From contig CAYYQY010000003.1 in assembly GCA_964473905.1 (NCBI GenBank), forward strand, positions 20,546-84,545: 64,000 nucleotides of DNA. The letters run 5' to 3'. A program made the translations under genes and the position numbers. This document shows positions 7,835 to 58,707 of this stretch, one piece after another. The stretch is from an uncultured Dehalococcoidales bacterium (GTDB taxonomy: Bacteria; Chloroflexota; Dehalococcoidia; Dehalococcoidales; CAYYQY01). How positions within the stretch are numbered: the stretch's first letter is position 1; each line of letters begins with the position of its first letter. The notes beneath the pieces were generated by a model. That model was not told where the DNA came from. It saw only the letters and a program-made list of their open reading frames with translations, and made no database searches.

Positions 7835-8599
7835 TTAATTATTGCTGTCCTCTTCATCTTCCTGGTCGAGAGCATCCTCGGCGTAAGATTCTTCGTATCC
7901 CATACGTTCCCTTAACATATTATCGCTGACGTAGGTCCGTGAATCCCGGAGTGTCTTGGAGGGGAAAGACATCTGTCCGGTCTGGCTGGGGTCCTGATAT
8001 GTCTCCCTGATAATAGCCGTGACATTATCGTCACTGGCGCTAATAACGTTAGCGGCGTACCTGTTGCCACCCTGCATCAGCCTGATAAGCCGCTGCGCAA
8101 TTTTGGGGTCAATCTGTCCCACATATTCACCGTGGTTATTGCCTGCCGTGAGGTTTGAGCCGGCTATTCTGAGATACAACTGGTCGCCAGCTGCCAGCCG
8201 GACTGTGACATGACGGGGGGGCGGATAATTGAGTTTAATAACTCCAGCCTTACCCACTTCCTCTATAAAATGATGCGGCTCGGCCTTGTTTATATCCTCT
8301 TCGGCTTTTTCCTCGCCCTCTCCCAGTTGTGCCAGGCGCTGGAGGTTCTTTTTGGCGATATTGTTGTACGAATCAAGTTCCAGCGCGTAGCTATAAGCAT
8401 CACTTGATTTTGCGTACATACCGAGCTGCATGTAAGCCCTGCCCAGACGATTATAGGCTTCAATATCTTTGGGAAAGTTGTCTATTATTTCCTGATTTAC
8501 GGTTATAGCTTCTTTCCATCGTCCCTGCATGGCGAGGGCGATGGCATGTTTACTGCGCTGTCGCCTTAATCTGGCTTGTCCTTCTTCCTCGTATGTCAT
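7835..8599 (-). CDS. TPR-repeat protein with an uncharacterised C-terminal domain and an acidic tail
   Basis: 254 aa. The N-terminal half has TPR-like helices (AYNRLGRAYMQLGMYAKSSDAYSYALELD). The C-terminal about 130 aa are unassigned. The tail is DALDQEDEEDSNN. Confidence 0.6.
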   Translation of the reverse strand: MTYEEEGQARLRRQRSKHAIALAMQGRWKEAITVNQEIIDNFPKDIEAYNRLGRAYMQLGMYAKSSDAYSYALELDSYNNIAKKNLQRLAQLGEGEEKAEEDINKAEPHHFIEEVGKAGVIKLNYPPPRHVTVRLAAGDQLYLRIAGSNLTAGNNHGEYVGQIDPKIAQRLIRLMQGGNRYAANVISASDDNVTAIIRETYQDPSQTGQMSFPSKTLRDSRTYVSDNMLRERMGYEESYAEDALDQEDEEDSNN

Positions 8600-43524: not shown

Positions 43525-44082
43525 TCAGCTTACCCTTTCCAGATAACTGCCGGTACGGGTGTCTACCTTTATAACGTTGCCGGTGTTAATAAACAATGGG
43601 ACCTGAATGGTGATACCGGTCTCCATTACGGCCGGTTTGTTGCCGCCGGTAGCGGTATCTCCTTTAAAACCGGAACCGGTCTCGGTAACCGTAAGCTCCA
43701 CGGTAATGGGAAACTCCACGCCAACGACCTCATCCTTATAGCTTGATACCTGTAAGACCATACCTTCTTTCAGATAGTTAAGGCCGTCTCCGAGCCTCTC
43801 TGCGTTCAAGGCTGTCTGTTCGAAGCTTTCCTGGTCCATGAAGTTATATATATCGCCATCATTATAGAGGTACTGCATGTCGCGTATATCAAGACGGGCG
43901 CGGGTAAATTTCTCGTTGGATTGGAAAGTCCGTTCAATAGTATGACCGGCATTTATATCGCGAAGCTTGATGCGGGTCAGAGCAGTCCGTTTCATTTTAA
44001 TATGCTGGTAGTCAAGGACCTGATAGAGTCCTCCTTCCAGTTCGATAATAATGCCTTTCCTTAAATCGCCACTGCTTATCAT
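43525..44082 (-). CDS. efp: Elongation factor P with a non-canonical beta3-beta4 loop
   Basis: 185 aa. Colinear with bacterial EF-P (C-terminal VPLFINTGNVIKVDTRTGSYLERV). The loop reads QHIKMKRTALTRIKLRD. Confidence 0.88.
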   Translation of the reverse strand: MISSGDLRKGIIIELEGGLYQVLDYQHIKMKRTALTRIKLRDINAGHTIERTFQSNEKFTRARLDIRDMQYLYNDGDIYNFMDQESFEQTALNAERLGDGLNYLKEGMVLQVSSYKDEVVGVEFPITVELTVTETGSGFKGDTATGGNKPAVMETGITIQVPLFINTGNVIKVDTRTGSYLERVS

Positions 44083-45164
44083 GTTGTCCTCCGGGCTTTT
44101 GATAGTACTTTTACGGCGCCATTTTCTATGGTTACGTCATCCTCTATCCTGACTCCTCCCCAACCGGGAAGATAGATACCGGGTTCAATGGTAAAAACCA
44201 TACCATTGGTAAGGCATTCGTCGGCACCCGGGCCCAACCGCGGGAATTCATGGCAGGCAAGACCTATACCGTGACCCAGGCTGTGGCCGAAGGCTTCGCC
44301 GTAGCCTGCCTGTTCAATGACCCTTCTTGACAGGCTGTCAGCCTCTTCGCCGGTAAGTCCCTCTTCTATTTTTATGATAGCTTCTTCTTGAGCACGGCGT
44401 ACAGTGTCATATACCATGGCATAGGTGTCATCGGCAGGGCTGATACAGAAAGTACGGCTGATATCGCTCGAATATCCTTCATATCTGGCACCCATATCTA
44501 TGATAACGGGTTCGCCTCCACCGATAGCGCGCGATGACGGCTGGGCGTGGGGCAGGGCGGCGTTGGGACCGGAAGCTACGATAACGTTAAAAGGCATGCT
44601 CTCGCTACCATTCTCTCGGAGAAACATCTCTATAGACCAGGCCAGTTCCTTTTCTGTCATACCGGCGTGAATTATATCTTCAATATATTCTGTAGCGCTG
44701 ACCGTTATTGCCACCGCTTTCTTGATGAGCTCAATTTCCCCGGCTTCCTTGATAGCCCGGAGTGATTCAACCATTCCTTCACGGGGGATAAATTCAAGTC
44801 CGGGTCTGGCCCTATTAAGTATATCAGTAAACTGGTGGTAGGTGGTAACGGTAAAGTATTCCGCTTCAAAGCCGAGCCTGTTGATGTTTAGCCCGGATAC
44901 AAGCCCGGGCAGCCAGCTATCGGGGCTCCCGGCTATTTTTATTATCTCGTAATCAGGAGCCTCTACCTTTACCTGTTCTATATAGCGGAAATCGGTAGCC
45001 AGAAATTTATCCTGAGGGGTAATCAGCAAAAAACCTGCCGAACCACTGAAGCCCGACAGATAATACCTGTTTTCGGGTTGAGATACCAGTAGGGCGTCTA
45101 TTTCCTGGTCTACCAGCTTACGGCGTAGTTTTTCAACACGACTGGCTGTCTGCAAGGTCGTCAT
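44079..45164 (-). CDS. Xaa-Pro aminopeptidase (M24B family)
   Basis: 361 aa. DMGARYEGYSSDISRT, HSLGHGIGLACHE and FTIEPGIY metal-ligand blocks. Confidence 0.88.
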   Translation of the reverse strand: MTTLQTASRVEKLRRKLVDQEIDALLVSQPENRYYLSGFSGSAGFLLITPQDKFLATDFRYIEQVKVEAPDYEIIKIAGSPDSWLPGLVSGLNINRLGFEAEYFTVTTYHQFTDILNRARPGLEFIPREGMVESLRAIKEAGEIELIKKAVAITVSATEYIEDIIHAGMTEKELAWSIEMFLRENGSESMPFNVIVASGPNAALPHAQPSSRAIGGGEPVIIDMGARYEGYSSDISRTFCISPADDTYAMVYDTVRRAQEEAIIKIEEGLTGEEADSLSRRVIEQAGYGEAFGHSLGHGIGLACHEFPRLGPGADECLTNGMVFTIEPGIYLPGWGGVRIEDDVTIENGAVKVLSKARRTT

Positions 45165-46086
45165 TCCTTTCCTGAGCCATGGGGTGAGCCGATAGATATA
45201 CTTTCCTGGCGCGGCTCTGGGTTACGTGCGTATAGATCTGGGTAGAAGTAAGATTCGTATGTCCCAGGAGCTCCTGGACTACCCTCAAATCGGCGCCGCC
45301 ATCCAGCAGGTGAGTAGCGAAGGTGTGGCGCAGCAGGTGAGGGTGAACCCACTTGTCTATGCAGGCACTTCTGGCATATTCGTTTAATAATTTCTGTACA
45401 CTTCTTTCGGTAAGGCGGTCTCCATAATAGTTTAAAAACAGTGCTTTCGTATTATTACTGCCCATTAGTTTAGGCCGTCCCTGGTTAAGATAGGTTTTAA
45501 GAGCTCTTGCCGCCGGCTTGCCCATCAGGACCACTCTTTCTTTGGCACCCTTCCCCCGGACACGTATTTCACGGGTATCAAAGTCAATCTGGCCAATATC
45601 GAGATGTATAAGCTCGCTTACTCTCAGCCCCGAAGCATATAAAAGTTCTATAAAGGCACGGTCGCGCTGGCCGAGTGGTGTGGTTAGGTCTGGGGCCAGC
45701 AGCAATTTATTCACCTCGGTAATGGTGAGGAACTCGGGCAGACGCTTATCCAGTTTAGGTGATGAAACATTTTCCATGGGGTTCACGGATAGCTTTTCTT
45801 CCCGTAAAAGGTAACGGAACAGGGAACGAATGGCCGAAAGCTTGCGGGCGATACTCACCCTGGCAATACCCTTCTCCATAAGCCAGGTAATGTATTCACG
45901 CACCAGAATCCGGTCTACCTTGTCTAGAGAATTGACATTTTTCAGTCTGAGGAACTGGAAAAATCCTGTCTCCGGGCCGCGGCAGTAGTTACCCAGCAAA
46001 TCGTTTTTATAGTTACGTACCGTATAAACGGAGGCGTTTCGTTCAGCCTCCAGATACTGGATATAGCTGTCAAATAGTCTCTTCAC
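45133..46086 (-). CDS. xerC: Tyrosine recombinase XerC/XerD family
   Basis: 317 aa. N-terminal SAM-like domain (YIQYLEAERNASVYTVRNY), catalytic LLRHTFATHLL and LGHTNLTSTQIYTHV. GTG start. Overlaps the aminopeptidase gene by 32 nt. Confidence 0.85.
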   Translation of the reverse strand: MKRLFDSYIQYLEAERNASVYTVRNYKNDLLGNYCRGPETGFFQFLRLKNVNSLDKVDRILVREYITWLMEKGIARVSIARKLSAIRSLFRYLLREEKLSVNPMENVSSPKLDKRLPEFLTITEVNKLLLAPDLTTPLGQRDRAFIELLYASGLRVSELIHLDIGQIDFDTREIRVRGKGAKERVVLMGKPAARALKTYLNQGRPKLMGSNNTKALFLNYYGDRLTERSVQKLLNEYARSACIDKWVHPHLLRHTFATHLLDGGADLRVVQELLGHTNLTSTQIYTHVTQSRARKVYLSAHPMAQERNDDLADSQSC

Positions 46087-46281: not shown

Positions 46282-47793
46282 TTAAAAACACAGTTTACCC
46301 GGGTTCATAATGTTATTCGGGTCACTCTTATTCTTGAGTTTCTTCAGATATTCGGCGTAAGTCCCGGAGCGACTGTACATAATTTCAGCCCAGGGTCCGT
46401 AGGGTCTATCAAAGAAACCACCCATATCAACCACTACTTCGCTGGCCTCTTTGTAGAGAGCCTTAACCGCTTGACTTTCCGCCGCGTCGTCAAGGTTGCA
46501 GTGAAAGTCAAATTCGCAGTATATGGTTCTCGCCCGCTCTATGGGCAGCAGATAGCCGCCGATATCACTGGTCGGGTAGTTGTATTTACAGGCTACGTCG
46601 TAGATAGCTGCCTCCAGTAAGCCTACCGTGTCCGGGCTCGAGTGGAACATAAGCCCGTGGCATGAGCCTTTATAACCGAATCGCTTCTGCATCCGGCCAG
46701 GCAGTATCACTTCCTCCTTGATGATATTGCTCAGTCCGGTTATAGCACCTACGGTATTCTTTAGCTCGCAACCACTTTCAACCGCTACGTCCTTCAGGTC
46801 CAGTTCCTGGTAGGCTAGTTTCTCATCGGCGCGTCTTGCCCAGCCGGTGAGGCAAACAATTATCGTCCAGGGTGGCAGGTTACCTCTGATGCTTTCAAAC
46901 TGCATGACCTGCTCTTCTGTCCAGGGGTTGGCGCCTCTATTCCCGACGTAAGTTCCCTTTTTCAGCTTATCGTCCTCACCCGGTATGTCTACCACCAGGG
47001 CGGCCAGGTCAAAGCTGTTAAAGGCAAAACATTCCAGTCCCAGTTCCTTGCGCTCAATACGCTGTATGATATGGGTCGCCTGGCTTACTGTCTCCGCCGG
47101 TATAAAGATGACTTTTTGGGCGGTCGGTAGTGGCAGGAGCCTTATTGCCATCTGTGTCACGATGCCGAAGGTGCCCTGAGAGCCCATGTAAAGGCGATAA
47201 AAGTCAAATGCCGGTCCGTCCGGGGCCATAGCACGTGATTTCTGTGTTGGCGGATGACCTATCGTGAACAGCTCGCCGGTAGGCATTAACATGTCGTAGG
47301 TACTGAAAAGCTCATTACCGAAGACGAAATCAGGAGCGGTAACCACCGGGTTCCTCTCTATATAGTCCACCAGCACCGAAGCCGAAGGCGGACTGGTAAG
47401 CGGTGCGGCTACTCTCAGGCCGTATTTTTCCAGTTCCGGTTGAAGCTGGGCATAGGTTACTCCGGCTTCAATCAGGGCGTGCCAGTTCCGCTCGTCTATA
47501 TAGGTAATCTTGTTGAGCCTCTGCAGGTTTACCAGGATACCGCCGATACTGGGAACGGCACCGCCGTGAAAGTCTGTCCCCGAGCTATAGGGGACAACCG
47601 GCATCAGGAGTTTGTTGGCCAGTCTGACTATTTCCTGGACCTCCGCTACAGTACCCGGCGTGACTACATAGTTAGGCCTTGTCTGCGGGACAAAACTCTG
47701 GTCGCGTGAATATTTATCCAGGACTAAGGGGTCATCGGAGGCATTATCTTTGCCTACGATAGCTGCTAATTCCTCAAGGATGCTATCACTCAC
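46282..47793 (-). CDS. FAD-linked oxidase/dehydrogenase subunit, type B, copy 1 (GlcD/D-lactate dehydrogenase-like)
   Basis: 503 aa. FAD_binding_4-type loop VVPYSSGTDFHGGAVP, and a C-terminal DPNNIMNPGKLCF. Confidence 0.8.
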   Translation of the reverse strand: MSDSILEELAAIVGKDNASDDPLVLDKYSRDQSFVPQTRPNYVVTPGTVAEVQEIVRLANKLLMPVVPYSSGTDFHGGAVPSIGGILVNLQRLNKITYIDERNWHALIEAGVTYAQLQPELEKYGLRVAAPLTSPPSASVLVDYIERNPVVTAPDFVFGNELFSTYDMLMPTGELFTIGHPPTQKSRAMAPDGPAFDFYRLYMGSQGTFGIVTQMAIRLLPLPTAQKVIFIPAETVSQATHIIQRIERKELGLECFAFNSFDLAALVVDIPGEDDKLKKGTYVGNRGANPWTEEQVMQFESIRGNLPPWTIIVCLTGWARRADEKLAYQELDLKDVAVESGCELKNTVGAITGLSNIIKEEVILPGRMQKRFGYKGSCHGLMFHSSPDTVGLLEAAIYDVACKYNYPTSDIGGYLLPIERARTIYCEFDFHCNLDDAAESQAVKALYKEASEVVVDMGGFFDRPYGPWAEIMYSRSGTYAEYLKKLKNKSDPNNIMNPGKLCF

Positions 47794-47860
47794 TTCTCTA
47801 CCCCCTTTCTTGAGTTATGCTGATAGTAAACAGCACTCACCAGTATTTGTTTCTTGGACA

Positions 47861-49393
47861 TTATTGCTCCAGCCTGACAAGCTTCCCCGGGTTCATGGTG
47901 TCGTTGGGGTCAAAGACGTTCTTTATCTGGGTTACCCAGTGCTTGGCGTTGGGACCTACCCTTGGGGAGTATATGGTAAGCACGGGTTCCATATAGTAGT
48001 ATCCCAGGTCAAGCAGGTCTTGCTTGGGTGTGCGGACAAAGCCGTCTATATTCATATCGCGGGCTGAACTCGCTTCCTCGTAATCAGACTGGTCAAAGAC
48101 CGTATCGTCTTCAAACAGCGCGTAATACCCCCGCTCAAAGATGTAAACCCAGGGGGTCTCCTCGTCGAACATGTAGTGGGAATGTCTCATGACTATATCC
48201 TGAGACCGCTCGTAAAACTCCCGGTGGTTGTCTATGTGACCGCAGCCGAGTTTGATAGAAGAAAAGCTGCCCCGGCGCTGGAAACGGCTGCCGCAGCCGT
48301 CGCGGAAGGCATCGCCATGCCAGGTTGCCATCTCTTCATTAAGGTCATCTCTGAACTTGCCGCCGGTCTCCTTGACGATATCCCGGAGAACGTTCTCTTC
48401 GTGGTCCAACTGCCTTGTCGACGAGATACCGGCGTTGATGACGTAAATCATGTGTCGGGGGAAGAACCCCTCGTGCCATCTCTTTTCCGCAAGCTCTTCG
48501 GTTTGCTGTGTCATACCGGTAACCCAACCATTTGAAGCCCCGTTAAGGTGGGTGCCGATGCCGGAGTGCGCGATTTCGTACATGGCTTCATTCATGGGCT
48601 CAATATCGGGGTATTCTACGTAGTAAATCCTGTGGTTGGCAGGTAACGGCGGCCTGTTGTAAACGGTCTCCTGTGGCCATTCGCCTCCGGCCCAGGGATG
48701 CAGCTTCATGGTGGCCTCTACGATAACCGCCATACCGCCATGATTGCAGAACTCAAAAATACCCTTGAGGTCAGGCCCAGGTCCCTGGCACCAGAAGTTG
48801 CCGCAGGCGGGTATGGTAGCCGAACCGGTCTTCAGAATATCACCGTTGGGTAAAACCAGGGTGAGGTTGGCTATTGAGCGCAGACCGACACCGTAGGCCA
48901 GCGAACTCTGCCAGGTACCGCTGTTAATAATGTTGGATAAGAGTCCGCAGCTACCCGGGGCTAACGGGGTGCCCCCGTTCCACAGCCCTCGCTTCATGGT
49001 TTCAGCCTGAATACGGGCGAAACTAACGTAGGGCTGAATGGTAGCCGTCATGGTATCTTCGTTGATTTCAAGAATCTTGTCCATTCGTTTCAGGTCAAGA
49101 GAAATGGTGCCCGGTTCACTCGGTATGCAGAGGGATACCATGTTAGCACCGGTACTTATGGGGATTACCTTTAGCCCGTACCTGTTAGCGATGCGGACTA
49201 CCCCTTGCACCTCCTCCGTGCTTGCCGGTAATACCACCAGGTCCGGAATAGCGGAGGGGTCTTGCTTGTATCTCTTCATAATTCCGGGGAAGGCCCCGTC
49301 CTTGGAGTATGTCTGGCGAACCATGGGGTCATCGCTGATAAAATCAGGGCCGACCACCGCGGCTATTGCTTGATAAACATGAGGTTCAATCAA
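47861..49393 (-). CDS. FAD-linked oxidase/dehydrogenase subunit, type A, copy 1
   Basis: 510 aa. PCMH-type FAD domain with a divergent loop VIPISTGANMVSLCIP, and a C-terminal DPNDTMNPGKL. TTG start behind AAGGAGGTG. Confidence 0.75.
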   Translation of the reverse strand: MIEPHVYQAIAAVVGPDFISDDPMVRQTYSKDGAFPGIMKRYKQDPSAIPDLVVLPASTEEVQGVVRIANRYGLKVIPISTGANMVSLCIPSEPGTISLDLKRMDKILEINEDTMTATIQPYVSFARIQAETMKRGLWNGGTPLAPGSCGLLSNIINSGTWQSSLAYGVGLRSIANLTLVLPNGDILKTGSATIPACGNFWCQGPGPDLKGIFEFCNHGGMAVIVEATMKLHPWAGGEWPQETVYNRPPLPANHRIYYVEYPDIEPMNEAMYEIAHSGIGTHLNGASNGWVTGMTQQTEELAEKRWHEGFFPRHMIYVINAGISSTRQLDHEENVLRDIVKETGGKFRDDLNEEMATWHGDAFRDGCGSRFQRRGSFSSIKLGCGHIDNHREFYERSQDIVMRHSHYMFDEETPWVYIFERGYYALFEDDTVFDQSDYEEASSARDMNIDGFVRTPKQDLLDLGYYYMEPVLTIYSPRVGPNAKHWVTQIKNVFDPNDTMNPGKLVRLEQ

Positions 49394-49410
49394 TTCAACT
49401 CACCTCCTTT

Positions 49411-50646
49411 TCATAACCCCTGCAGTACAAGGTCCAGCAAATCATACATTTTCATCTTGTTGCCGTTTCTCTGGATAGCCTCGCCCAGGTTTTCTTCACA
49501 GTGGGGGCAGTAAGTAACCAGGGCTTCAGCACCGGTGCTCTCTGCCTCCTCAATGCGCTTGTCCGCTGTCCACTGTGCCAGTTCCAGGTATCCATCCCGG
49601 AGCCAGCTACCGGCACCGCAACACCACGAATCATCCCTGTTTCTATCCATTTCGGTTAGTGTAATACCGGGAATACTGTTCAGGATATTCCTGGGTGGCT
49701 CATAGATACCGGAGAAAGCTCCCGTGCCGCTGATACCATAATCGCTGATTCTGCCGAGGTGGCAGGGGTCGTGGTAGGTCACGTTCAGGTTAACCGGCTT
49801 GGTTAGTTTGAGTTTACCCTGGGTTATGAGCTCGTCTGTGAACTCAAGGATATGGACAACCTCAAAGTTCATCTTTTCACCTACCTCGGGGTAGTCGCGC
49901 TTAAAAGTGCTGTAGCAGAAGGGGCAGATGGTAACCAGCTTTTCGATTCCCATATCATTGAACATCTTGATGTTCTCTTTGGCGAAAGCGTGGAACGAGT
50001 CCACATCGCCCATTCGGAGCGAGGGATTGCCACAGCAGCGCTCTTTCTCGCCGAGGATACCGACGTCAACACCGGCCTTGATGAGAACGGTAGCAGCGTC
50101 CTGAGCCATTTTCTCGGCTGAGGGGTCGCGGAGCGGGAAACAGCCGACATAGAGCAGGGTCTTGGTCTTGGTGCCTGTGCCGGAGATACCGTCGGCCAGG
50201 CTGGCGGGCAGACCCTTCATCCAGTTAATTCTCTCGGCGTCGTGTTTCCTGTAGGGGTTCATGTATTCTCTAAGGTCATCCAGGAAGGTTTTGAAGCCGC
50301 CGGGCGGGTTCAGACCGTCCTTGAGTGCCTTGGCCCTCATTGCCTGGATTATCTGTGTGGGTTGCATCTCTTTGATACGTCCGCATATATAATCACAGGC
50401 GCCGCAGAGCGGGTCCTGATAAATTACCTCAAGCATGCTGTCAGACCAGTCCAGTTCGCCCTCAATTAAGGCACGGGCGATATCCATTTTACCCTGAGCA
50501 GCGTAACAGTCAAACTTGTATCGGGATATACTGGGGCAAATCTGGTAGAACTCTGCGTTCTTGGTATGCCAGGGGAAGACCTGCTTACACTGGCTATCGC
50601 GAAAGCAGTTCCAGGTCCACCGACGGTAATCTTTAAGTTCTTTCAT
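49411..50646 (-). CDS. Soluble (Fe-S)-binding protein with two CCG domains (HdrD/GlcF-like), copy 1
   Basis: 411 aa. CCG motifs ...YVGCFP..CCGNP..ICPFCY and ...HDPCHL..CCGAG..YCPHCE. N-terminal non-canonical Cys pattern. ATG behind GGAGGA. Confidence 0.8.
   Translation of the reverse strand: MKELKDYRRWTWNCFRDSQCKQVFPWHTKNAEFYQICPSISRYKFDCYAAQGKMDIARALIEGELDWSDSMLEVIYQDPLCGACDYICGRIKEMQPTQIIQAMRAKALKDGLNPPGGFKTFLDDLREYMNPYRKHDAERINWMKGLPASLADGISGTGTKTKTLLYVGCFPLRDPSAEKMAQDAATVLIKAGVDVGILGEKERCCGNPSLRMGDVDSFHAFAKENIKMFNDMGIEKLVTICPFCYSTFKRDYPEVGEKMNFEVVHILEFTDELITQGKLKLTKPVNLNVTYHDPCHLGRISDYGISGTGAFSGIYEPPRNILNSIPGITLTEMDRNRDDSWCCGAGSWLRDGYLELAQWTADKRIEEAESTGAEALVTYCPHCEENLGEAIQRNGNKMKMYDLLDLVLQGL
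49907..50249. repeat. Near-identical tract shared with 51426-51768 (inside the CCG-protein gene, copy 1)
   Basis: Base-by-base comparison at a fixed offset of 1519 nt gives 343 nt with a single mismatch (49954 A versus 51473 G, synonymous GAT/GAC). Positions 49955-50249 are a perfect 295-nt match. Confidence 0.9.
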
Positions 50647-50882
50647 ACCTTATCCTCCTCATATCTTGAGAAGTGGAAGCGGAGTAGCATGTACTGGCAA
50701 AATACGAATACGTGATACTATCTCTTCCTTATCCATGTCATTCTACTTGCCGGAAAATCTGTAAGCCTAGCCCGGACAAAAAATTCCGAGTGTCATGCCC
50801 GGTATCGTAAGTATAAGGTCTGAATATATACAGGCTGCCGTATTACCGGACAGCATAAATGACATAGCTCTCGCCGTTAATA

Positions 50883-50919
50883 GAAGAGTAAGGTTCTTTT
50901 TTATAGAACCTTACTCTTC
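50883..50919 (-). terminator. Perfect 15-bp hairpin just downstream of the CCG-protein gene, copy 2 (possible terminator separating the two modules)
   Basis: GAAGAGTAAGGTTCT (50883-50897), 7-nt loop, AGAACCTTACTCTTC (50905-50919). Starts 10 nt after the stop codon at 50930. No clear U-tract. Confidence 0.35.
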
Positions 50920-50929
50920 GCTATCTTTA

Positions 50930-52171
50930 TTACAGTGCCTGCAGTACAAGGTCCAGCAGGTCATACATTTGCATCTTGTTGCCGTTTCTCTGGATAGCCT
51001 CGCCCAGGTTTTCTTCACAGTGGGGGCAGTAGGTAACCAGCGCTTCAGCACCGGTGCTTTCTGCCTCCTCAATGCGCCTGTCGGCTGTCCACTGTGCCAT
51101 GTCAAGATATCCGTCCCGGAGCCAGCCACCGGCACCGCAGCACCAGGAATCATCCTTGTTGCGGTACATCTCGGTAAGCGTTACGCCGGGAATGCTGTTC
51201 AGGATGTTTCTTGGCTGTTTATACTTGCCAATGAAATCATCCGTACCACTGGTACCATTACCGCTGATTCTGCCGAGGTGGCAGGGGTCGTGGTAGGTAA
51301 CGTTCAGGTTAACCGGCTTTGTCAGTTTGAGTTTGCCCTGTGCGATAAGTTCATCCACCATATCCAGGATGTGGATAACCTCGAAGTTCATCTTCTCGTC
51401 AACCATGGGATAATCGCGGGTAAAGGTGCTGTAGCAGAAGGGGCAGATGGTAACCAGCTTTTCGATTCCCATGTCATTGAACATCTTGATGTTCTCTTTG
51501 GCGAAAGCGTGGAACGAGTCCACATCGCCCATTCGGAGCGAGGGATTGCCACAGCAGCGCTCTTTCTCGCCGAGGATACCGACGTCAACACCGGCCTTGA
51601 TGAGAACGGTAGCAGCGTCCTGAGCCATTTTCTCGGCTGAGGGGTCGCGGAGCGGGAAACAGCCGACATAGAGCAGGGTCTTGGTCTTGGTGCCTGTGCC
51701 GGAGATACCGTCGGCCAGGCTGGCGGGCAGACCCTTCATCCAGTTAATTCTCTCGGCGTCGTGTTTCCGGAAGGGGTTCATGTATTCTCTGAGGTCATCC
51801 AGGAAGGTTTTAAAGCCGCCGGGCGGGTTCAGGCCGTCCTTGAGTGCCTTGGCCCTCATTGCCTGGATAACCCGGGTTGGTTGCATCTCAGTAATACGTC
51901 CGCAGTTATAATCACAGGCGCCGCAGAGCGGGTCCTGATAGATTACCTCAAGCAGTTTATCTGACCACTCTATTTCACCTTCAATCATGGCACGGGCTAA
52001 ATCGCCCATTTTCCCTTGAGAGGAATAGGCATCAAATTTATAACGTGTCAGAGTCGGGCAGATATCATCATAGTCTGCATTCTTGAGGTGCCAGGTGAAG
52101 ACATGTTTACATGTGCTATCGCGAAAGCAGTTCCAGCACCAATGTCTGTACTCTTCCAGTTCCTTGATCAT
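50930..52171 (-). CDS. Soluble (Fe-S)-binding protein with two CCG domains (HdrD/GlcF-like), copy 2
   Basis: 413 aa. About 85% identical by eye to copy 1, with the same CCG motifs. Confidence 0.8.
   Translation of the reverse strand: MIKELEEYRHWCWNCFRDSTCKHVFTWHLKNADYDDICPTLTRYKFDAYSSQGKMGDLARAMIEGEIEWSDKLLEVIYQDPLCGACDYNCGRITEMQPTRVIQAMRAKALKDGLNPPGGFKTFLDDLREYMNPFRKHDAERINWMKGLPASLADGISGTGTKTKTLLYVGCFPLRDPSAEKMAQDAATVLIKAGVDVGILGEKERCCGNPSLRMGDVDSFHAFAKENIKMFNDMGIEKLVTICPFCYSTFTRDYPMVDEKMNFEVIHILDMVDELIAQGKLKLTKPVNLNVTYHDPCHLGRISGNGTSGTDDFIGKYKQPRNILNSIPGVTLTEMYRNKDDSWCCGAGGWLRDGYLDMAQWTADRRIEEAESTGAEALVTYCPHCEENLGEAIQRNGNKMQMYDLLDLVLQAL
51426..51768. repeat. Near-identical tract shared with 49907-50249 (inside the CCG-protein gene, copy 2)
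   Basis: See the partner repeat at 49907-50249: 343 nt with 1 mismatch, and a 295-nt perfect core (51474-51768). Confidence 0.9.
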
Positions 52172-52191
52172 TTAGACTCCTCCTTTTGAGA

Positions 52192-53715
52192 TTAGAAGCA
52201 GAGCTTGCCCGGATTCATAATGTTGTTGGGGTCCAGTTGCGCCTTTACTTTCTTAAGGTACTCGGCATAGTTACCGCTACGCCGGTACATCATGTCTGCC
52301 CAGACTCCATAGGGCCTATCGAAGAACGCGCCAGCATCGATAGCAGCTTCACTGGCTTCATGGAATAAAGCCTTGACTCTTTCCACGTCAGCGGCACTGG
52401 CTGATTCACAGTGCAGGTCATAGACGCAGTAGAAAGAGCGCGCCCGTTCCACCGGCTGGACATAAGCGCCAACATCACCCCATGAATAGTTGTATTTGGC
52501 AGCTACCTTGGCTATAGCTTCTTCAATCTTGGAGAGTGCAGCACCGGTACTGTAGAACATTAGACCGTGGCAAGAGCCTCTGTAACCAAATCTCTTTTGC
52601 ATTCTCCATGGGAGGAGCATTTCCTCCTCGATTATTTTTCCAAGACCCGATATACCGCCTACGGATGGCTTTAGCTCAAAGCCAACTTCAGCAGACAGGT
52701 CTCTGAGGTCGAGTTCCTGGTATTGAACTTTCTCCTCGGGATGTCTTGCCCAACCTGTAAGCGTAATTACCAGGGTCCAGGGGGGCAGGGCATGTCTCAG
52801 TGTCTCGAAACGCTTTCTTTGAGCCTGAGACCAGGGCTTGGCACCAGTGTTACCGATGTATGAGCCTTGCTTCAAGCTCTTGGTATCGGCGGCGTCCTCG
52901 TCAACGGCGAGGGTAGCCAGGTCAAAGCTGTTGAGCGCGAAGCATTCAAAACCGAGTTCCTGGCGCTGAATGCGTTTCATAGCGCCTATAACGTCAGCGG
53001 CATTAGCAAAGGCAACGAAGAACACTTTCTGTGCTTTGGGTTTCGGGATTACTCTCACGTTAATTTCATAAACAGTACCCAGTGTTCCCTCTGCACACAT
53101 GAACATTCGGTAGAAGTTCAGGCCGGGGCCAAAGATATGCGAGTGTGGGGCCCCTTCAACTGCCGGGTTACCCATGGTGAAGCTGTCACCGTTGGGTATT
53201 ACGACACGCATAGTCTGCATCTGCTCATTGCCGTAAATGAAGTCTGCCGCGCACGGTACCGGCTCTCTCTCAACGTATGAAATGAGGGCTGATGCCGAGG
53301 GAGGAGCCATAAGTGGCGTGGGCAATCTAAGGTCGTGCTTATCGAGCTCTTCTTTCAGCTGGGCAAAGGTTAAACCGGGGCCGATACTTACCCAGTGATA
53401 GAAAGTGTCAAGCTCGGATATCTTGTTCATTTGACTCAGGTCAACCACGATACCGCCCTGAGTGGGTACGGAGCCCCCGTGGAAATCGGTAGCGGAGCTA
53501 CGCGGCACCAGGGGCATGAGTTGCTCGTTGGCGAATTTAACGATGTTTTGCAGTTCCTCGAGTGACTTGGGTTTTACCACATAGTGGGGCTTGCGGGCCG
53601 GGGTAAAGCTCTGGTCACGGGAATATTTTTCTAAGGTAGCAGTGTCGCTGGACACCCCTTTGGCGCCGACTATTTTATTCAGTCCATCTTTAATGGCATC
53701 TTTAACTTCACTCAT
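52192..53715 (-). CDS. FAD-linked oxidase/dehydrogenase subunit, type B, copy 2
   Basis: 507 aa. LVPRSSATDFHGGSVP and a C-terminal DPNNIMNPGKLCF. Roughly half identical to copy 1 by eye. Confidence 0.8.
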   Translation of the reverse strand: MSEVKDAIKDGLNKIVGAKGVSSDTATLEKYSRDQSFTPARKPHYVVKPKSLEELQNIVKFANEQLMPLVPRSSATDFHGGSVPTQGGIVVDLSQMNKISELDTFYHWVSIGPGLTFAQLKEELDKHDLRLPTPLMAPPSASALISYVEREPVPCAADFIYGNEQMQTMRVVIPNGDSFTMGNPAVEGAPHSHIFGPGLNFYRMFMCAEGTLGTVYEINVRVIPKPKAQKVFFVAFANAADVIGAMKRIQRQELGFECFALNSFDLATLAVDEDAADTKSLKQGSYIGNTGAKPWSQAQRKRFETLRHALPPWTLVITLTGWARHPEEKVQYQELDLRDLSAEVGFELKPSVGGISGLGKIIEEEMLLPWRMQKRFGYRGSCHGLMFYSTGAALSKIEEAIAKVAAKYNYSWGDVGAYVQPVERARSFYCVYDLHCESASAADVERVKALFHEASEAAIDAGAFFDRPYGVWADMMYRRSGNYAEYLKKVKAQLDPNNIMNPGKLCF

Positions 53716-53716
53716 C

Positions 53717-55276
53717 TCAACCCTCCTTCTCCGCTTTCTTCTTTTCCGGAGGTCTTATGAAAGTTAATGCGTCCGGATTAAGAATGTCCTTGGGGTCGAA
53801 TACACTCTTCATCCGCTTGAGCATCAAATGGAAATTGGGACCTATCTTGGGGCCAAACCAGGCTCCTGTTGGCTCGGCAAGCGTAAAGTAACCAGAGGGG
53901 TTCTCACAAGTGGTTTTAACGATTTCAACTACGAACGGTAGTATCTTCTGAGAGTAGTCCAGCTGGTCGCCGTAGAGGTCGCGCTCGTCAACCCAGAAAT
54001 AACCGCGGTCGTAGGCATAATACCACGGCCAGGTGGTATTAACGCTTGGAATATCCCCATTTTTAATTACGTCCTGCTGGCTGTGATGAACCTGGACCAT
54101 GTTTTCAATAGGTCCGCGTCCGAATCCGGTTATGGCGTATATTCCGTAACGAATCCAGCGAACGAAGTCGCCGCTGCGGAAGCAGTCCTGGTTATAAGCA
54201 TCCATGTGGCCTCTGCGTTCACCGGTGAGAGGTTCTCCACCCACCTCTTCCATTATCTCCTTCAGTATCATTTCTTCGTAATCCAGCTGGCGGGGAGAGA
54301 AGCCGGCGAGCATAATGTACATCCAGTGCGGTTCGTAAAAACCCTCGTCGAATCGTTTTACGGAAAGCGCCTGGTGAGACTCGCCGACCAGTGAATCAAC
54401 AGATTTCATGGTCAGGTTAACACCAATAGCAATGCCGGCGTAGCATATATCATGGCCGGCTTTAATCGCTTGCTCGGGTTTATTGAATCTGTACCAGAAA
54501 ACGCGATGGTTGGCGGGTAGCGGTGGATGAGCGTAGACCTCCTCTTGGGGCCACTCTCCGCCTACCCAGGTGTGCAGCTTATAAATTACTTCGGTTATCA
54601 CACCGATAGCACCGAAACTGCCCATTTCCCAGAGTGCCTTGAGGTCCGGGCCGGGGCCGTACCAGTAGGTAGAATCGCCTGGATTTAAGCCGTGGGCACC
54701 GGTGCGAATGATTTCTCCGTTAGGCAGGACAACGGTAAAGGCGAGGACGCCTCTGATACCGAAACCATAAGCTACGGAGGTTTGCCAGTCGCCACCATAG
54801 GCCAGTATGTTTGAAATGAGGTTATTACTGGCTGGAGCGGCAGGTGTGCCGCCATTCCATAGACCGCGTTTCATTGCTTCAGCCTGGACTCGGGAGTAGC
54901 TGACCCAAGGTTGCATCCTGATGAACTTGTTTTCCTCATCAATTTCCAGAATCTTGTCCATGCGTTTGAGGTCAAGAATAATAGTCCTGGGCCTTCGCGG
55001 GATACAGTATCCGGTAAGGTTATCCCCAGAACCCATGATTATCACGTTGACTGCGTACCTGTTGCAAATACGCATGACTCCCTGTACTTCTTCTGTATCC
55101 AAAGGGATAACTATGGCATCAGGAATGGCAACCGGGTCTTTTTTCAGCTTCCTCACGGTGATTGATGGGTGAGGATCCCGGCTATAGGCGTGGCGGATAA
55201 CAATGTCATCACTAACAAAATCAGGACCGACAACTTCAGCAAGTGCCTGGATAACATAAGGTTCTATCAATTCCAA
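53717..55276 (-). CDS. FAD-linked oxidase/dehydrogenase subunit, type A, copy 2
   Basis: 519 aa. VIIMGSGDNLTGYCIP and DPKDILNP. The N-terminus MELIEPYVIQALAEVVGPDFVSDD parallels copy 1. TTG start behind AAGGAGGTG. Confidence 0.75.
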   Translation of the reverse strand: MELIEPYVIQALAEVVGPDFVSDDIVIRHAYSRDPHPSITVRKLKKDPVAIPDAIVIPLDTEEVQGVMRICNRYAVNVIIMGSGDNLTGYCIPRRPRTIILDLKRMDKILEIDEENKFIRMQPWVSYSRVQAEAMKRGLWNGGTPAAPASNNLISNILAYGGDWQTSVAYGFGIRGVLAFTVVLPNGEIIRTGAHGLNPGDSTYWYGPGPDLKALWEMGSFGAIGVITEVIYKLHTWVGGEWPQEEVYAHPPLPANHRVFWYRFNKPEQAIKAGHDICYAGIAIGVNLTMKSVDSLVGESHQALSVKRFDEGFYEPHWMYIMLAGFSPRQLDYEEMILKEIMEEVGGEPLTGERRGHMDAYNQDCFRSGDFVRWIRYGIYAITGFGRGPIENMVQVHHSQQDVIKNGDIPSVNTTWPWYYAYDRGYFWVDERDLYGDQLDYSQKILPFVVEIVKTTCENPSGYFTLAEPTGAWFGPKIGPNFHLMLKRMKSVFDPKDILNPDALTFIRPPEKKKAEKEG

Positions 55277-55457: not shown

Positions 55458-57575
55458 TTAGGTCTCGGTGGTCTCAACTTTGCTCTTATGAGCGCACTTG
55501 GTGCATTTTGCCCACTTGCTTCTGTAGAGAGTTTGCATGCTGCCGCATTTGGGACATGGTTCGGGTAACGGCCTGAAGTTCGTGGCAAACTGGCAATCGG
55601 GGTAGTTGCTGCAGCCAAAGAAGGTACGTCTTTTTTTATTCAGCTTCTCTACCAGCTCGCTGCCACACTCCGGACATTTAACGCCGGTTTTTATTTGATA
55701 GGACTTGCTGTATTTACATTCCGGATAACCGCTGCAGGCGAGGAATTTACCGTAACGCCCGGTTTTGATAGCCAACTGCCTGTTGCACTTGGGGCAGGTC
55801 TCATCCACCAGTTCGTCCGCCATCTCAACTTTCTCCAAGAGTGAAGAGGCTTGGGTTAAGTTTATTTCAAAGGGTGTATAGAAATCCCGGATAACGCTGG
55901 TCCAGTCTCTATGCTCGCTGACTATCTCGTCCAGTTCCTGTTCCATGCGGGCGGTAAAACCGATATCGATTACATCGCTGAAGTACTGGGCGAGTATATC
56001 ATTGACTATGATACCCAGCTCCGTAGTGTGGAAGGTGCCGGCACTGCGAGTGACATACTCCCGCTCCTGAATAGTGGATAGAATGGGCGCATAGGTGCTG
56101 GGACGGCCTATCCCCTCCTGCTCCAGGGATTTGACCAGTGTCGCCTCGGTAAAGCGGGGTGGGGGTTGCGTAAAATGCTGCTCAGGATTAAGTTTGACGA
56201 GGACAAGGGCGTCTTCCTTTTCCAGGTGCGGTAGAGGCGAGCTTTTATTCGCCGTCTTGTCTGTCTCGTCCTTTCCCTCCGTGTAAAGGACGGTAAACCC
56301 GGCAAAGATGAGGTCGGAGCTGGAAGCTCGGAGCAGGTAGTTGGAAGTGGGGTGCGAGAGGCTGGCTTTAATATCCACTGTAATGTTATTAAAGGTGGCC
56401 GCTGACATCTGGCTGGCTATCATTCTTTGCCAGATAAGCTGGTACAGCTTGAACTGGTTGCTGGTAAGGTGTTGCTTGATGATAGACGGTTCCCGCCGGG
56501 TACTGGTTGGACGTATAGCCTCATGGGCCTCCTGGGCTCCTTTTACCTTGCGGGAAAAGGAACGGGCGTGGGGTGGTAAAAATTGAGGGCCGTACTTGTC
56601 GCTGATGAATTCCCGGGTTTCGGTAACGGCATGGTTTGCTACCCGGGTTGAATCTGTACGCATATAGGTGATAAGGCCAACCGTGCCTTCGCTGCCTACA
56701 GGCAGCCCTTCGTAAAGCTGCTGGGCAATAGCCATGGTTTGTTTAGCGGTAAAACGCAGCTTGCGCCAGGCTTCCTGTTGCAGGGTGCTGGTGATAAAGG
56801 GCGGCGGCGGCTGGCGGGTGGCTTTCTTGCTACCTACTTTAGCTACTTGGTAGCTCGCCTCTTTAAGTCCCTGGCAAATCTTATCGGCTTCCGTCTGGGT
56901 ATGAATATGCAGCCTGGTACCGTTAAGGTGGCCGATAAGCGTGGCTTTGAAAATGCTATTCCCTTCGGCGCCGGTGTGCTTTTTTAGTTCGGCATCCACG
57001 GACCAGTATTCTTCCTTGACGAACTGCTGGATTTCCCTTTCACGGTCAACGATTATACGTAAGGCCACTGACTGTACCCGGCCTGCGGACAGGCGCTTGC
57101 GCACCTTGTTCCAGAGGAGCGGGCTAATCTTGTAGCCTACCAGCCTGTCCAGGATACGGCGTGCCTGCTGGGCGTTTACTAGTTGAATGTCAATAGACCG
57201 GGGATGTTTGAAAGCGTGCAGCACCGCCTCCTTTGTTATCTCATGGAAAGTGACTCGCTGATACGGTACATCGTTAGTTCGGGTTACCTCGGCCAGATGC
57301 CATGATATGGCCTCTCCCTCGCGGTCAGGGTCTGTTGCCAGGTAGACGGTGGAAGCTGACTTTATCGCCTCTTTTAGCTCCTGAACTACCTTCCTTTTAT
57401 CTTTGGGTACAACGTATTTGGGGGTAAAGTCGTGCTCTACATCAACACCCAGGCGGCTTCTCGGCAGGTCACGCACATGACCCAGCGATGCCTTAAGAGT
57501 GTAGCCTTTACCCAGTATCTTACCGAGAGTTCTCGCCTTCGCCGGTGATTCCACAATAACCAGTTTGTTTGTCAT
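55458..57575 (-). CDS. topA: DNA topoisomerase I
   Basis: 705 aa. TOPRIM LVIVESPAKARTL, active-site region ITYMRTDSTR, and three C-terminal zinc ribbons (CPKC.., CPEC.., CPKC..). Confidence 0.96.
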   Translation of the reverse strand: MTNKLVIVESPAKARTLGKILGKGYTLKASLGHVRDLPRSRLGVDVEHDFTPKYVVPKDKRKVVQELKEAIKSASTVYLATDPDREGEAISWHLAEVTRTNDVPYQRVTFHEITKEAVLHAFKHPRSIDIQLVNAQQARRILDRLVGYKISPLLWNKVRKRLSAGRVQSVALRIIVDREREIQQFVKEEYWSVDAELKKHTGAEGNSIFKATLIGHLNGTRLHIHTQTEADKICQGLKEASYQVAKVGSKKATRQPPPPFITSTLQQEAWRKLRFTAKQTMAIAQQLYEGLPVGSEGTVGLITYMRTDSTRVANHAVTETREFISDKYGPQFLPPHARSFSRKVKGAQEAHEAIRPTSTRREPSIIKQHLTSNQFKLYQLIWQRMIASQMSAATFNNITVDIKASLSHPTSNYLLRASSSDLIFAGFTVLYTEGKDETDKTANKSSPLPHLEKEDALVLVKLNPEQHFTQPPPRFTEATLVKSLEQEGIGRPSTYAPILSTIQEREYVTRSAGTFHTTELGIIVNDILAQYFSDVIDIGFTARMEQELDEIVSEHRDWTSVIRDFYTPFEINLTQASSLLEKVEMADELVDETCPKCNRQLAIKTGRYGKFLACSGYPECKYSKSYQIKTGVKCPECGSELVEKLNKKRRTFFGCSNYPDCQFATNFRPLPEPCPKCGSMQTLYRSKWAKCTKCAHKSKVETTET

Positions 57576-57579
57576 CCAG

Positions 57580-58707
57580 TTAATCCACCCTTACATTGTA
57601 TTCCTTACTTACCTCGCGAGCTATAACATAACTCATAATACCTACCTGCTTCACCAGCCCTTTGAGCTCCATCATGCTCAGGGTGCTGCTGACTGTAGCT
57701 ATAGGGAGGCTGCTGGCACGGCAAATATCATCAATATGCGTAGGTTCGCCGGTGAGCCCATTCAGCAACAGCGACTCGGTATCGGAGGCGGGTATGAGTT
57801 CTGTCATCTCCATCTGTTGTGCTACCTGAGTATAGTTTAATTCCACCAGGATATCCGTGTAGTTACGGACCAGCTTGGCACCTTCCTGGATAAGGAGATT
57901 GGTGCCGCGGCTCGCCGGTGATAAAATGCTGCCCGGAACGGCAAAAACCTCCCGGTTCTGTTCCAGTGCCAGATGCGCCGTAATCAGGGCGCCGCTTGAC
58001 TCCCCGGCTTCAATGACCAGCACGCCCGGGCTAAGTCCGCTTAAAATCCGGTTGCGGCGGGGGAAGTTATCGGGTCTGGGTCGGGTACCCAGGGGGTATT
58101 CGCTTATTAAGGCCCCCTGTTGAGAGAGACTGCGGGCTAAACTGGTGTTCTCGTGCGGGTATACCGTGTCCAGTCCCGAGGCGAATACGGCGATGCTTCT
58201 ACCCCCGGCGTCCAGCGCGCTGCGGTGGGCCATAGTATCTATGCCTTTCGCCAGACCGCTGACGATAGTAATATTACTACGTGCCAGATCGGCTACTATT
58301 TCATCTGTCACCTGACGGCCGTAGATGGAAGCCCGGCGGCTGCCGACAACTGCCAGACACCACTCATCGGCGGGTAGCAGGGAACCTTTTACATATAAAA
58401 GGGGCGGGCAATCATATATTTCTTTGAGCCGGGAAGGGAAATCATCATCGTGCCAGGTAAGCGTCCTGACGCCATATTTTTCCAGCTTTTCCATTTCCGC
58501 ATCCGGTGATATTCTGGGACGCCAGGTATTGATGCTGCGAATGGTACTGCTTTCCAGTCCGGCTTGCTTTAAGTCAGCGGATGAGGCTAGCCAAGCGTCC
58601 TCAAGACTACCGAAGTAGTTCTCAAGTTGGGCAAATCTAACTCGCCCGATGCCGGGGATAATGCTGAAACCTACCCGGTATTTCTTATCATTACGTAACG
58701 TATCCAA
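57580..58707 (-). CDS. dprA: DNA processing protein DprA/Smf
   Basis: 375 aa. Rossmann-like core VVGSRRASIYG..IVSGLAKGID..H and a C-terminal winged-helix. TTG start with no obvious SD. Confidence 0.88.
   Translation of the reverse strand: MDTLRNDKKYRVGFSIIPGIGRVRFAQLENYFGSLEDAWLASSADLKQAGLESSTIRSINTWRPRISPDAEMEKLEKYGVRTLTWHDDDFPSRLKEIYDCPPLLYVKGSLLPADEWCLAVVGSRRASIYGRQVTDEIVADLARSNITIVSGLAKGIDTMAHRSALDAGGRSIAVFASGLDTVYPHENTSLARSLSQQGALISEYPLGTRPRPDNFPRRNRILSGLSPGVLVIEAGESSGALITAHLALEQNREVFAVPGSILSPASRGTNLLIQEGAKLVRNYTDILVELNYTQVAQQMEMTELIPASDTESLLLNGLTGEPTHIDDICRASSLPIATVSSTLSMMELKGLVKQVGIMSYVIAREVSKEYNVRVD

Follow-up and report, generated by a model that had tools for sequence, protein, structure and literature searches.

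Two GlcDEF-like flavoprotein and iron-sulfur protein modules between topA and xerC in an uncultured Dehalococcoidales bacterium

We analyzed a stretch of 64,000 nucleotides (the window) from contig CAYYQY010000003.1 of an uncultured Dehalococcoidales bacterium (GenBank assembly GCA_964473905.1), in which a block of six genes, A2-B2-C2 and C1-A1-B1, lies between topA and xerC. We consider it probable, at roughly 70%, that this block encodes two paralogous cytoplasmic heterotrimeric flavin and iron-sulfur (FeS) oxidoreductases, A2·B2·C2 and A1·B1·C1, which by architecture look like relatives of the GlcDEF-like kind found in anaerobic benzene degraders. They would then be a new Chloroflexota branch of a three-protein kind that was already described in 2026. 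The gene structure, folds, motif pattern, phylogeny, gene conversion and site occupancy of the block are matters of direct observation. Position numbers refer to the whole window, and L- and P-numbers denote homologous loci of relatives and homologous proteins, respectively.

Results

Flavoproteins A and B in the VAO/PCMH superfamily

Pfam FAD_binding_4 was detected in A1, A2, B1 and B2 (75-91 bits; A2, 78.6 bits), and FAD-oxidase_C gave a weak match to A2, B1 and B2 and none to A1. The initial annotation, which had listed all four as full-length proteins with both domains, thus holds for their length (503-519 aa) and for the first domain and only in part for the second. Its identities estimated by eye agree with our global alignments (A1/A2 45%, B1/B2 53%, C1/C2 86.6%); A and B are ~26% identical to each other. 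The motifs that it quoted, STGANMVS and GSGDNLTG in A and SSGTDFHGG in B, are present. We did not find the FAD loop of A to be aberrant, as the word "divergent" had implied: its S-T-G-x-N pattern resembles the PCMH/VAO loop, the FAD domain of A scores best against PCMH-type proteins, and the AlphaFold2 (AF2) model of A1 (mean predicted local distance difference test score, pLDDT, 91) is a complete VAO fold. At residues 72-80, B2 departs from the SSGxxxHGG of B1 and most family members: it reads SSATDFHGG, a Gly-to-Ala change in the pyrophosphate loop.

The A1 model superposes on mouse mLDHD, vanillyl-alcohol dehydrogenase and PCMH with template-modeling (TM) scores of 0.74-0.79, at 16-20% identity. 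When A was used for sequence searches of the PDB, the FAD domain alone found matches, and the cap domain (residues 222-480) had none there. This cap is rare, with 42 clusters at E<=1e-3 returned by phmmer from 1.84 billion representative proteins, 15 of them at E<=1e-10. Along its whole length, the B-family profile can be aligned to PCMH (1dii) and to a bacterial vanillyl-alcohol oxidase (9ffk), with E ~1e-40. In the alignment of B with 1dii, which is a profile alignment and not a structural one, Tyr95 is replaced by His, Tyr473-Arg474 by Asp-Arg and the flavinylated Tyr384 by Phe. The Asp-Arg pair lies in an invariant FFDRPYG motif of the B family that aligns to GEHGIG of mLDHD, GEHG(I/V)G itself being absent, and A has an E-P motif in place of the GEHG(I/V)G of D-2-hydroxyacid dehydrogenases. 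Because neither the PCMH residues nor the GEHG motif is carried over, we place A and B, as far as their sequences indicate, in a branch of their own within the VAO/PCMH superfamily.

Two known activities come into question for such proteins. The end-to-end profile match of B, the preference of the A FAD domain for PCMH-type proteins and the position of more distant family members beside UbiD decarboxylases, glyoxalase/dioxygenase-fold genes and TetR regulators would all suit cytoplasmic PCMH/VAO-like enzymes that oxidize para-substituted phenols or benzylic alcohols via a quinone methide, with the FeS subunit replacing the cytochrome c subunit. We regard this as rather unlikely, given that both the phenolate triad and the flavinylated Tyr are lost and that the window block has no aromatic-pathway neighbors; a PCMH-type phenol site in B is ruled out by the loss of the Tyr/Tyr/Arg triad in the profile alignment.

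It is more doubtful that the modules are nothing more than D-2-hydroxyacid dehydrogenases for glycolate or D-lactate, of the GlcDEF or Dld-HdrD type. They do share the subunit plan of GlcDEF. Public names of family members are generic: "FAD-binding oxidoreductase", "(Fe-S)-binding protein" and "glycolate oxidase", the last given by the Joint Genome Institute (JGI) to some members of the cluster. One of the best fold matches of A is mLDHD, and the N-terminal FAD domains of A and B weakly match glcD models. That domain is all that aligns, however, and the scores lie far under the NCBIfam cutoffs: 75-102 bits for glcD TIGR00387 (cutoff 568) and 53-75 for PRK11230 (cutoff 897). B1 and B2 reach 35-38 bits with GlcE PRK11282 (cutoff 284), which A does not match, and C reaches 19-21 bits with GlcF PRK11274 (cutoff 333). 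These values rule out GlcDEF orthology and agree with the earlier view of an architecture like that of GlcDEF in proteins that are not GlcDEF. FFDRPYG in B in place of GEHG(I/V)G, the A cap domain without a sequence match in the PDB, and two full-length flavoproteins where GlcE is not full length also speak against a 2-hydroxyacid dehydrogenase. The automatic labels "glycolate oxidase" and "lactate dehydrogenase" are probably wrong for these genes.

FeS subunit C and its cluster-ligand columns

C1 and C2 each carry two Pfam CCG domains (116-120 bits; C2, 119.9), and no transmembrane helix was found in A, B or C, in which no 19-residue window exceeds a Kyte-Doolittle hydropathy of 1.6. The best NCBIfam match of C is TfrB (167-173 bits, C2 167, with residues 38-411 aligned; cutoff 385). 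The AF2 model of C1 (pLDDT 92) finds its best PDB match in the soluble FeS part of Mycobacterium smegmatis EtfD (9ojn; Foldseek E 1e-20, TMq 0.72; phmmer E 1.4e-32), with LutA and HdrB next. Domain content and hydropathy bear out the earlier description of C as a soluble protein with two CCG motifs, and the fold match makes it HdrD/EtfD-like. This best match in sequence and structure takes its electrons from an electron-transfer flavoprotein (ETF), which is in keeping with the model proposed below.

Both ferredoxin motifs quoted in the initial annotation, WNCFRDSQCKQVFP and CGACDYIC, are present in C. The C family has C-x2-C-x2-C-x16-CP as motif 1 and C-x2-C-x2-C-x3-C as motif 2, and C1 and C2 have C-x2-D-x2-C-x16-CP and D-x2-C-x2-C-x3-C, giving six Cys and two Asp at the cubane sites. 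The motifs had been called non-canonical, which they are; the second, taken for a bare C-x2-C-x3-C, in fact begins with an Asp aligned to a Cys of relatives. The Asp residues occupy positions 17 and 78 of both proteins, where relatives carry Cys. Across 59 C homologues, position 17 is D in 36, C in 21 and E in two; position 78 is C in 40 and D in 19; position 81 is C in 57 and D in two; and the remaining five cubane-ligand Cys are invariant. All ten CCG Cys are present in C1 and C2, nine of them invariant among the homologues and one found in 57/59. Asp-ligated ferredoxins are known. Because the ligand columns alternate solely between Cys and carboxylates, the pattern argues that the Asp at positions 17 and 78 may be a cluster ligand or may mark a [3Fe-4S] site.

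Genomic partners and taxonomic spread

A scan of species-representative genomes gave 80 loci of the family. A adjoins B at every one of them, and C accompanies the pair in about half, in the orders A-B-C, B-C-A, A-B and B-A; at loci that lack C, the pair is usually followed by a 446-aa geranylgeranyl-reductase-like flavoprotein (29 loci). A natural A-then-B fusion of 1016 aa, P0389 (RJO60169.1, candidate division WS5), matches A1 with its N-terminal half (E 4e-42) and B2 with its C-terminal half (E 1.6e-88); UniRef labels it "D-lactate dehydrogenase (cytochrome)". At L017, from a Chloroflexota metagenome-assembled genome (MAG), and at this locus only, EtfB-EtfA (2371-4156) lies inside a homologous block with the order B-C-EtfB-EtfA-A-x-xerC-pepP, which hints at ETF as a redox partner.

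Among species representatives, L009 (84%), an uncultured Dehalococcoidales MAG, comes closest to the window. The other members of the family come from MAGs of uncultured Chloroflexota and Thermodesulfobacteriota, with many paralogues in each Thermodesulfobacteriota genome. Proteins of 544-552 aa from Bathyarchaeia (P0286, P0381 and P0382) and Actinomycetota (P0371) carry the rare cap domain of A, and the family therefore crosses the boundary between bacteria and archaea. The many paralogous A-B(-C) modules of individual Thermodesulfobacteriota MAGs (L007/L008, L018-L088) often adjoin the gene of a geranylgeranyl-reductase-like flavoprotein, TetR, UbiD-family genes, xanthine/uracil permeases, and a BNR + MMPL + DUF1302 + DUF1329 set; this set may be the porin/RND "Nanopod" cluster of Toth et al.

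Relation to the flavoprotein trio of benzene degraders

This kind of enzyme is no longer new to the literature: two papers of 2026 describe the same three-protein type (PMC13416013, PMC13101534). Musat et al. reported three proteins of the sulfate-reducing benzene degrader BzS1 (BzS1_12970/80/90; 54.5, 46.5 and 65.8 kDa), with a gene order of FAD oxidase, Hdr-like FeS protein and FAD oxidase, which together amount to about a fifth of the proteome on benzene; they noted abundant ETF and related the trio to GlcDEF and VAO/PCMH (PMC13416013). In Ca. Anaerobenzenivorax ORM2a, Toth et al. named this trio "Magic" proteins #24-26, and AlphaFold3 predicted for it a GlcDEF-like heterotrimer with <=23% identity to GlcDEF; their Protein #25 retains 7/8 cubane Cys and has a degenerate second CCG site (PMC13101534). 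The trio is proposed as the anaerobic benzene-activating enzyme of Desulfobacterota and Pelotomaculum; the benzene clade is 63-89% identical internally, syntenic homologues lie at 23-42%, a level at which both groups assign other functions, and Chloroflexota are mentioned in neither paper (PMC13416013, PMC13101534).

The window modules and the trio share a protein set: a FAD_binding_4 + FAD-oxidase_C protein, an Hdr-like FeS protein and a FAD_binding_4-only protein in operon-like arrangement. In Table S4 of Musat et al., the BzS1 proteins match MAG proteins of 485 aa and ~520-570 aa at 36-45% identity (PMC13416013). Thermodesulfobacteriota B and A proteins, respectively, are of these sizes, and their A proteins share 35-40% identity with A1 of the window. 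No accession of a window homologue is among the top-100 BLAST hits of that table (PMC13416013), no NaphS2- or benzene-degrader-labeled protein was returned by a search from a 568-aa Thermodesulfobacteriota A protein, and no benzene-clade accession is among ten representatives with the A cap domain. Literature searches on the family in Dehalococcoidia and on VAO/Hdr combinations found nothing on Chloroflexota members.

Two far-reaching functions can be considered against this background. We would call it a long shot that the modules are working members of a new flavin/FeS class that functionalizes inert substrates without oxygen, with the carboxylate-for-Cys swaps of both ferredoxin-type sites tuning or gating electron recycling within the complex; were this true, a lineage abundant in sediments would have two different inert substrates at its disposal. 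A role of the window enzymes in hydrocarbon activation is possible but unlikely, and it seems very improbable that they are functional counterparts activating benzene or another unactivated hydrocarbon in Dehalococcoidia. They are of the same three-protein type as BzS1_12970-90 and "Magic" #24-26, which in a benzene degrader account for about one fifth of the proteome on benzene, and Protein #25 likewise misses one ferredoxin-site Cys. The two papers, however, assign other functions to homologues at 23-42% identity, the window has no adjoining CoA ligase, CoA-transferase, beta-oxidation or TetR genes, its second CCG motif is intact where that of #25 is degenerate, the gene order differs, and the benzene role of the trio is itself unproven.

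Evolution of the two modules and gene conversion between C1 and C2

By bit scores and neighbor-joining trees, A1 and B1 group with single B-C-A modules (L005, L006, L010 and L011; type 1), and A2 and B2 with single A-B-C modules (L012-L017; type 2). The AB pairs thus belong to two separate subfamilies that occur as single modules in other genomes, in agreement with the earlier view that they diverged long ago. The type-2 C clade takes in C1 as well as C2, and restricting the comparison to unconverted segments does not change this. A different arrangement is preserved at L103 (6835-15830), which reads topA-B-C-A-B-C-A-xerC: here a type-2 A-B-C module separates the C gene from the A gene of a type-1 B-C-A module, whose own type-1 C is still in place. 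Because C1 falls in the type-2 clade and L103 retains a type-1 C, we infer that in the lineage of the window a copy of C2 supplanted the native type-1 C, an event that would also have brought the two C genes next to each other.

Identity between C1 and C2 is a mosaic. In mid-gene, C1 and C2 of one genome are 97-100% identical, including a tract without a single difference (Table 1), whereas orthologues of the window and L001 are 78-86% identical there; the ends of C1 and C2 are just 63-78% identical, and at the gene ends orthologues are closer to each other than paralogues. Since mid-gene identity within a genome exceeds that between genomes, C1 and C2 are, by the pattern of their sequences, under concerted evolution by continuing gene conversion. 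The initial annotation had C duplicated later than the AB pairs. The membership of both copies in the type-2 clade supports this, and the ~87% identity from which it was argued is partly a product of the continuing conversion; a uniformly recent duplication as the sole cause of that identity is ruled out by the mosaic and by the orthologue comparison. At L009, a run of N (3084-3183) falls exactly on the repeat, with N-terminal C2 sequence on one side of it and C-terminal C1 sequence on the other: the assembly collapsed or broke on the C2/C1 repeat, and automated annotation would miss one C gene.

The topA|xerC junction

We scanned metagenomes with TopA and obtained 80 loci at 60-72% identity, of which 59 extend beyond topA and are therefore informative. 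At 38 of these, xerC-pepP-efp-PHP follows directly after topA and the site is empty, which confirms that the block interrupts an otherwise contiguous dprA-topA-xerC-pepP-efp run. Another 15 have other, unrelated small cargo of 0.5-3.2 kb at the junction (L091, L092, L095, L098, L106-L108, L118, L123, L129, L140, L141, L156, L157 and L166), and six have the block. The junction, which lies beside a recombinase gene, looks like a recurrent insertion site. Several cargo genes have no family match, and one at L095 is weakly similar to an adenine DNA methyltransferase.

In the TopA tree, the window, L001, L033, L090, L093, L101, L105 and L115 form one clade, and every informative member of it has the block; L103 falls outside. 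Close relatives (A1 90%, DNA ~80%) share both this layout and the site. In a comparison of the window with L001, block proteins (A1 90%, A2 86%, B2 84%, B1 78.5%) are more conserved than those of the flanks (TopA 76%, XerC 73%, PepP 68%). The composition of the block is mixed: its overall GC equals that of the flanks, GC at third codon positions (GC3) of A1, C1 and C2 is 0.655 against 0.562±0.034, and its tetranucleotide correlation of 0.83, against 0.93-0.96, makes it the least typical 9-kb stretch of the window, in part because of its internal paralogy. We conclude that the block entered a conserved gene run long ago, at a junction that varies among relatives, and that it is now fixed and vertically inherited in one subclade. 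Of the accessory insertion first proposed, then, the insertion stands; a strain-level island it is not, as a whole TopA subclade has it at one site and its proteins are more conserved than the flanks. This goes part of the way toward the refutation named at the outset, relatives with the block at the same site and with the composition of the flanks. That the block is a recently acquired mobile island is hardly credible, for although it breaks a conserved run beside a tyrosine recombinase gene at a junction holding other cargo elsewhere, and has raised GC3 and an atypical tetranucleotide profile (inflated by paralogy), its subclade-wide occupancy of one site and conservation above the flanks rule this out, its overall GC is that of the flanks, and we saw in it no transposase, no integrase beyond the housekeeping xerC-like gene and no flanking repeats.

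Gene layout and transcription signals

Open reading frame (ORF) analysis reproduced the six genes, their coordinates, minus strand and order as first described (Table 1): all run in the same direction, A2-B2-C2 followed by a 283-nt spacer and C1-A1-B1. The remaining gaps are short (A2-B2 1 nt, B2-C2 20, C1-A1 17, A1-B1 67), and an AGGAGG/GGAGG-type ribosome-binding site (RBS) stands 5-9 nt before each gene; the block is two tight operons. NCBI records A1, B1 and C1 on an 86,859-bp contig, with identical starts and no informative name.

Table 1. Features of the block and its flanks, in window coordinates
Feature	Position	Strand	Description
A2	53717..55276	-	VAO/PCMH-fold flavoprotein, type-2 module, 519 aa, TTG start; RBS AAGGAGG upstream
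B2	52192..53715	-	VAO/PCMH-fold flavoprotein with FAD-oxidase_C, type-2 module, 507 aa
C2	50930..52171	-	Soluble FeS subunit, 413 aa; 2 ferredoxin-type motifs (each 3 Cys + 1 Asp), 2 complete CCG motifs
Gene-conversion tract in C2	51474..51768	-	295 nt identical to C1 49955-50249
Perfect 15-bp hairpin	50883..50919	-	10 nt past C2 stop; free energy (dG) -25.7 kcal/mol, z -5.5
Short terminator-like stem + T-run	50786..50802	-	C2-C1 spacer; consensus scan only
C1	49411..50646	-	FeS subunit, 411 aa; putative later copy of C2 serving type-1 AB pair
Gene-conversion tract in C1	49955..50249	-	295 nt identical to C2 51474-51768
A1	47861..49393	-	VAO/PCMH-fold flavoprotein, type-1 module, 510 aa, TTG start
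B1	46282..47793	-	VAO/PCMH-fold flavoprotein with FAD-oxidase_C, type-1 module, 503 aa, GTG start
topA	55458..57575	-	Upstream flank, Pfam
dprA	57580..58707	-	Upstream flank, Pfam
xerC-like recombinase	45133..46086	-	Downstream flank, Pfam
M24 aminopeptidase	44079..45164	-	Downstream flank, Pfam
efp	43525..44082	-	Downstream flank, Pfam

The spacer and its perfect hairpin, noted earlier, withstood folding analysis: none of 200 shuffles folds as well. The hairpin has a weak U-tail. L001 has a hairpin at the same place (~8534-8568) that differs in four base pairs, all compensatory, and the equivalent region of L115 folds weakly. This is likely a transcript-end or processing structure parting the two operons. 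No Rfam family matched the spacer, a sigma-70 scan of it gave no convincing promoter (promoter-like sites 13 versus 9.3±2.9 expected, not enriched), and terminator-like sites in the region are not enriched over shuffles.

Pfam confirmed the flanks as dprA-topA on one side and xerC-aminopeptidase-efp on the other, with a PHP-domain gene also on the latter. Farther out, the window has a 677-aa molybdopterin oxidoreductase (Fe4S4 + Molybdopterin + Molydop_binding; 40022-42055) between tig and clpP, which adjoin each other in L001; in L001, in turn, genes for formyltransferase, HAD and PfkB proteins that are absent from the window separate the PHP gene from clpP. At L002 (13294-14143), a close relative, the xerC-like gene is split into two ORFs of 233 and 64 aa, which may be a frameshift or a sequencing error.

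Discussion

We propose the following model for the two heterotrimers. A and B, two different VAO/PCMH-fold FAD proteins, would act as a heterodimer in hydride or electron transfer on a small organic substrate, and electrons would leave or enter through C by way of two ferredoxin-type clusters (three Cys and one Asp position each) and two HdrB-type CCG sites; the external partner would probably be ETF or a quinone-linked system. Complex formation, the direction of electron flow, the cluster types and the acceptor are predicted here by analogy. The AB pairs, 45-53% identical and members of separate old subfamilies, are far enough apart that A1B1 and A2B2 could have different substrates. As to history, type-1 and type-2 modules would have come between topA and xerC in the ancestor of a Dehalococcoidia subclade, and a tandem copy of C2 would have taken the place of the native type-1 C in the lineage of the window; C1 and C2 would since have exchanged sequence by gene conversion, with the block inherited vertically under purifying selection.

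Several points weigh against this model. All members of this three-protein kind are biochemically uncharacterized. The window proteins look like a distant, undescribed Chloroflexota branch of the GlcDEF-like kind of benzene degraders when compared by description, sizes and reported identities; the family link is thus one of architecture and indirect figures. AF2 places no cofactors, so that FAD binding by A and Asp ligation in C are presumptive; the A, B and C trees are neighbor-joining trees without bootstrap; and the window block contains no acceptor gene, whether for ETF or for a quinone-binding or membrane subunit.

Anaerobic benzene activation is a long-standing unsolved question, for which a GlcDEF-like flavoprotein trio is the current best candidate. 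If, as their architecture indicates, the window proteins are related to that trio, this kind of enzyme reaches into Dehalococcoidia and, more distantly, into Bathyarchaeia, Actinomycetota and candidate division WS5. It would then comprise at least two old subfamilies able to sit side by side, would swap its electron-output partner among C, a geranylgeranyl-reductase-like flavoprotein and ETF, and would show a systematic alternation between Cys and Asp or Glu at cluster-ligand positions. Such variants are comparative material for the residues that set substrate and redox tuning, and the window offers them as two small self-contained operons suited to heterologous expression. C1 and C2 also provide a clear bacterial case of concerted evolution of adjacent paralogues, whose repeat breaks metagenome assemblies as well, as at L009.

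Among known systems, E. coli GlcDEF resembles the window modules in combining two VAO-family FAD subunits with an FeS subunit of two ferredoxin-type and two CCG motifs, and in having no transmembrane helices; it differs in its short GlcE (~350 aa, versus 503-519 aa for window A and B) and in a 2-hydroxyacid active-site motif that window B lacks. PCMH and the vanillyl-alcohol oxidases and dehydrogenases (1dii, 9ffk, 8s7p) share the VAO fold, align with B over its full length and have a loop like the S-T-G-x-N of A, yet identity is 16-20%, and their Tyr/Tyr/Arg triad and flavinylated Tyr are not conserved in the window. These enzymes are homodimers, and the partner of PCMH is a cytochrome c, whereas the window enzyme is predicted to be a heterodimer of two paralogues with an FeS protein as partner. 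A confurcating dehydrogenase of the Ldh-EtfAB type (LctBCD) finds no match in the window block, which contains no etf genes.

For C, the closest comparisons are TfrB, HdrB/HdrD and EtfD. TfrB and HdrB/HdrD likewise have two CCG domains with five Cys each; TfrB has a [2Fe-2S] N-terminal domain that C lacks, C scores under the TfrB cutoff, and the thiol/disulfide substrate of these enzymes has no known equivalent in the window host. In mycobacterial EtfD (Rv0338c homologue, 9ojn), two cubane and two CCG-site clusters wire ETF to menaquinone; as in C, two cubane-cluster domains precede two CCG domains, in a flavoprotein-fed electron wire (PMC13083937). C has no counterpart to the five transmembrane helices, the heme b and the long disordered tail of EtfD, and the cubane motifs of EtfD are all Cys where C has Asp at two positions. 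Of the two CCG sites of EtfD, the first lacks the second Cys and binds a linear [3Fe-4S] cluster (PMC13083937), whereas C has CCG in both sites. Unlike the EtfD and HdrDE complexes, the window block has no membrane protein gene or heme-b domain.

The benzene trio differs from the window in its host phylum, which is not Chloroflexota; in an A-like protein of ~577 aa, against 510-519 aa; in the degenerate second CCG motif of #25, both being intact in the window; and in one missing cubane Cys, against two Asp substitutions. It has a single gene order, B-C-A, where the window has two tandem modules ordered A-B-C and C-A-B, and its neighbors are CoA ligase, CoA-transferase, beta-oxidation and TetR genes, with topA and xerC in their stead in the window. 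The likenesses run through all three subunits: a B-like protein, a C-like protein with four Cys-rich motifs and an A-like protein in which just the PCMH-type FAD domain is recognized, together with a missing ferredoxin-site Cys, a suspected link to ETF, and the B-C-A order, which is also that of the type-1 relatives of C1-A1-B1.

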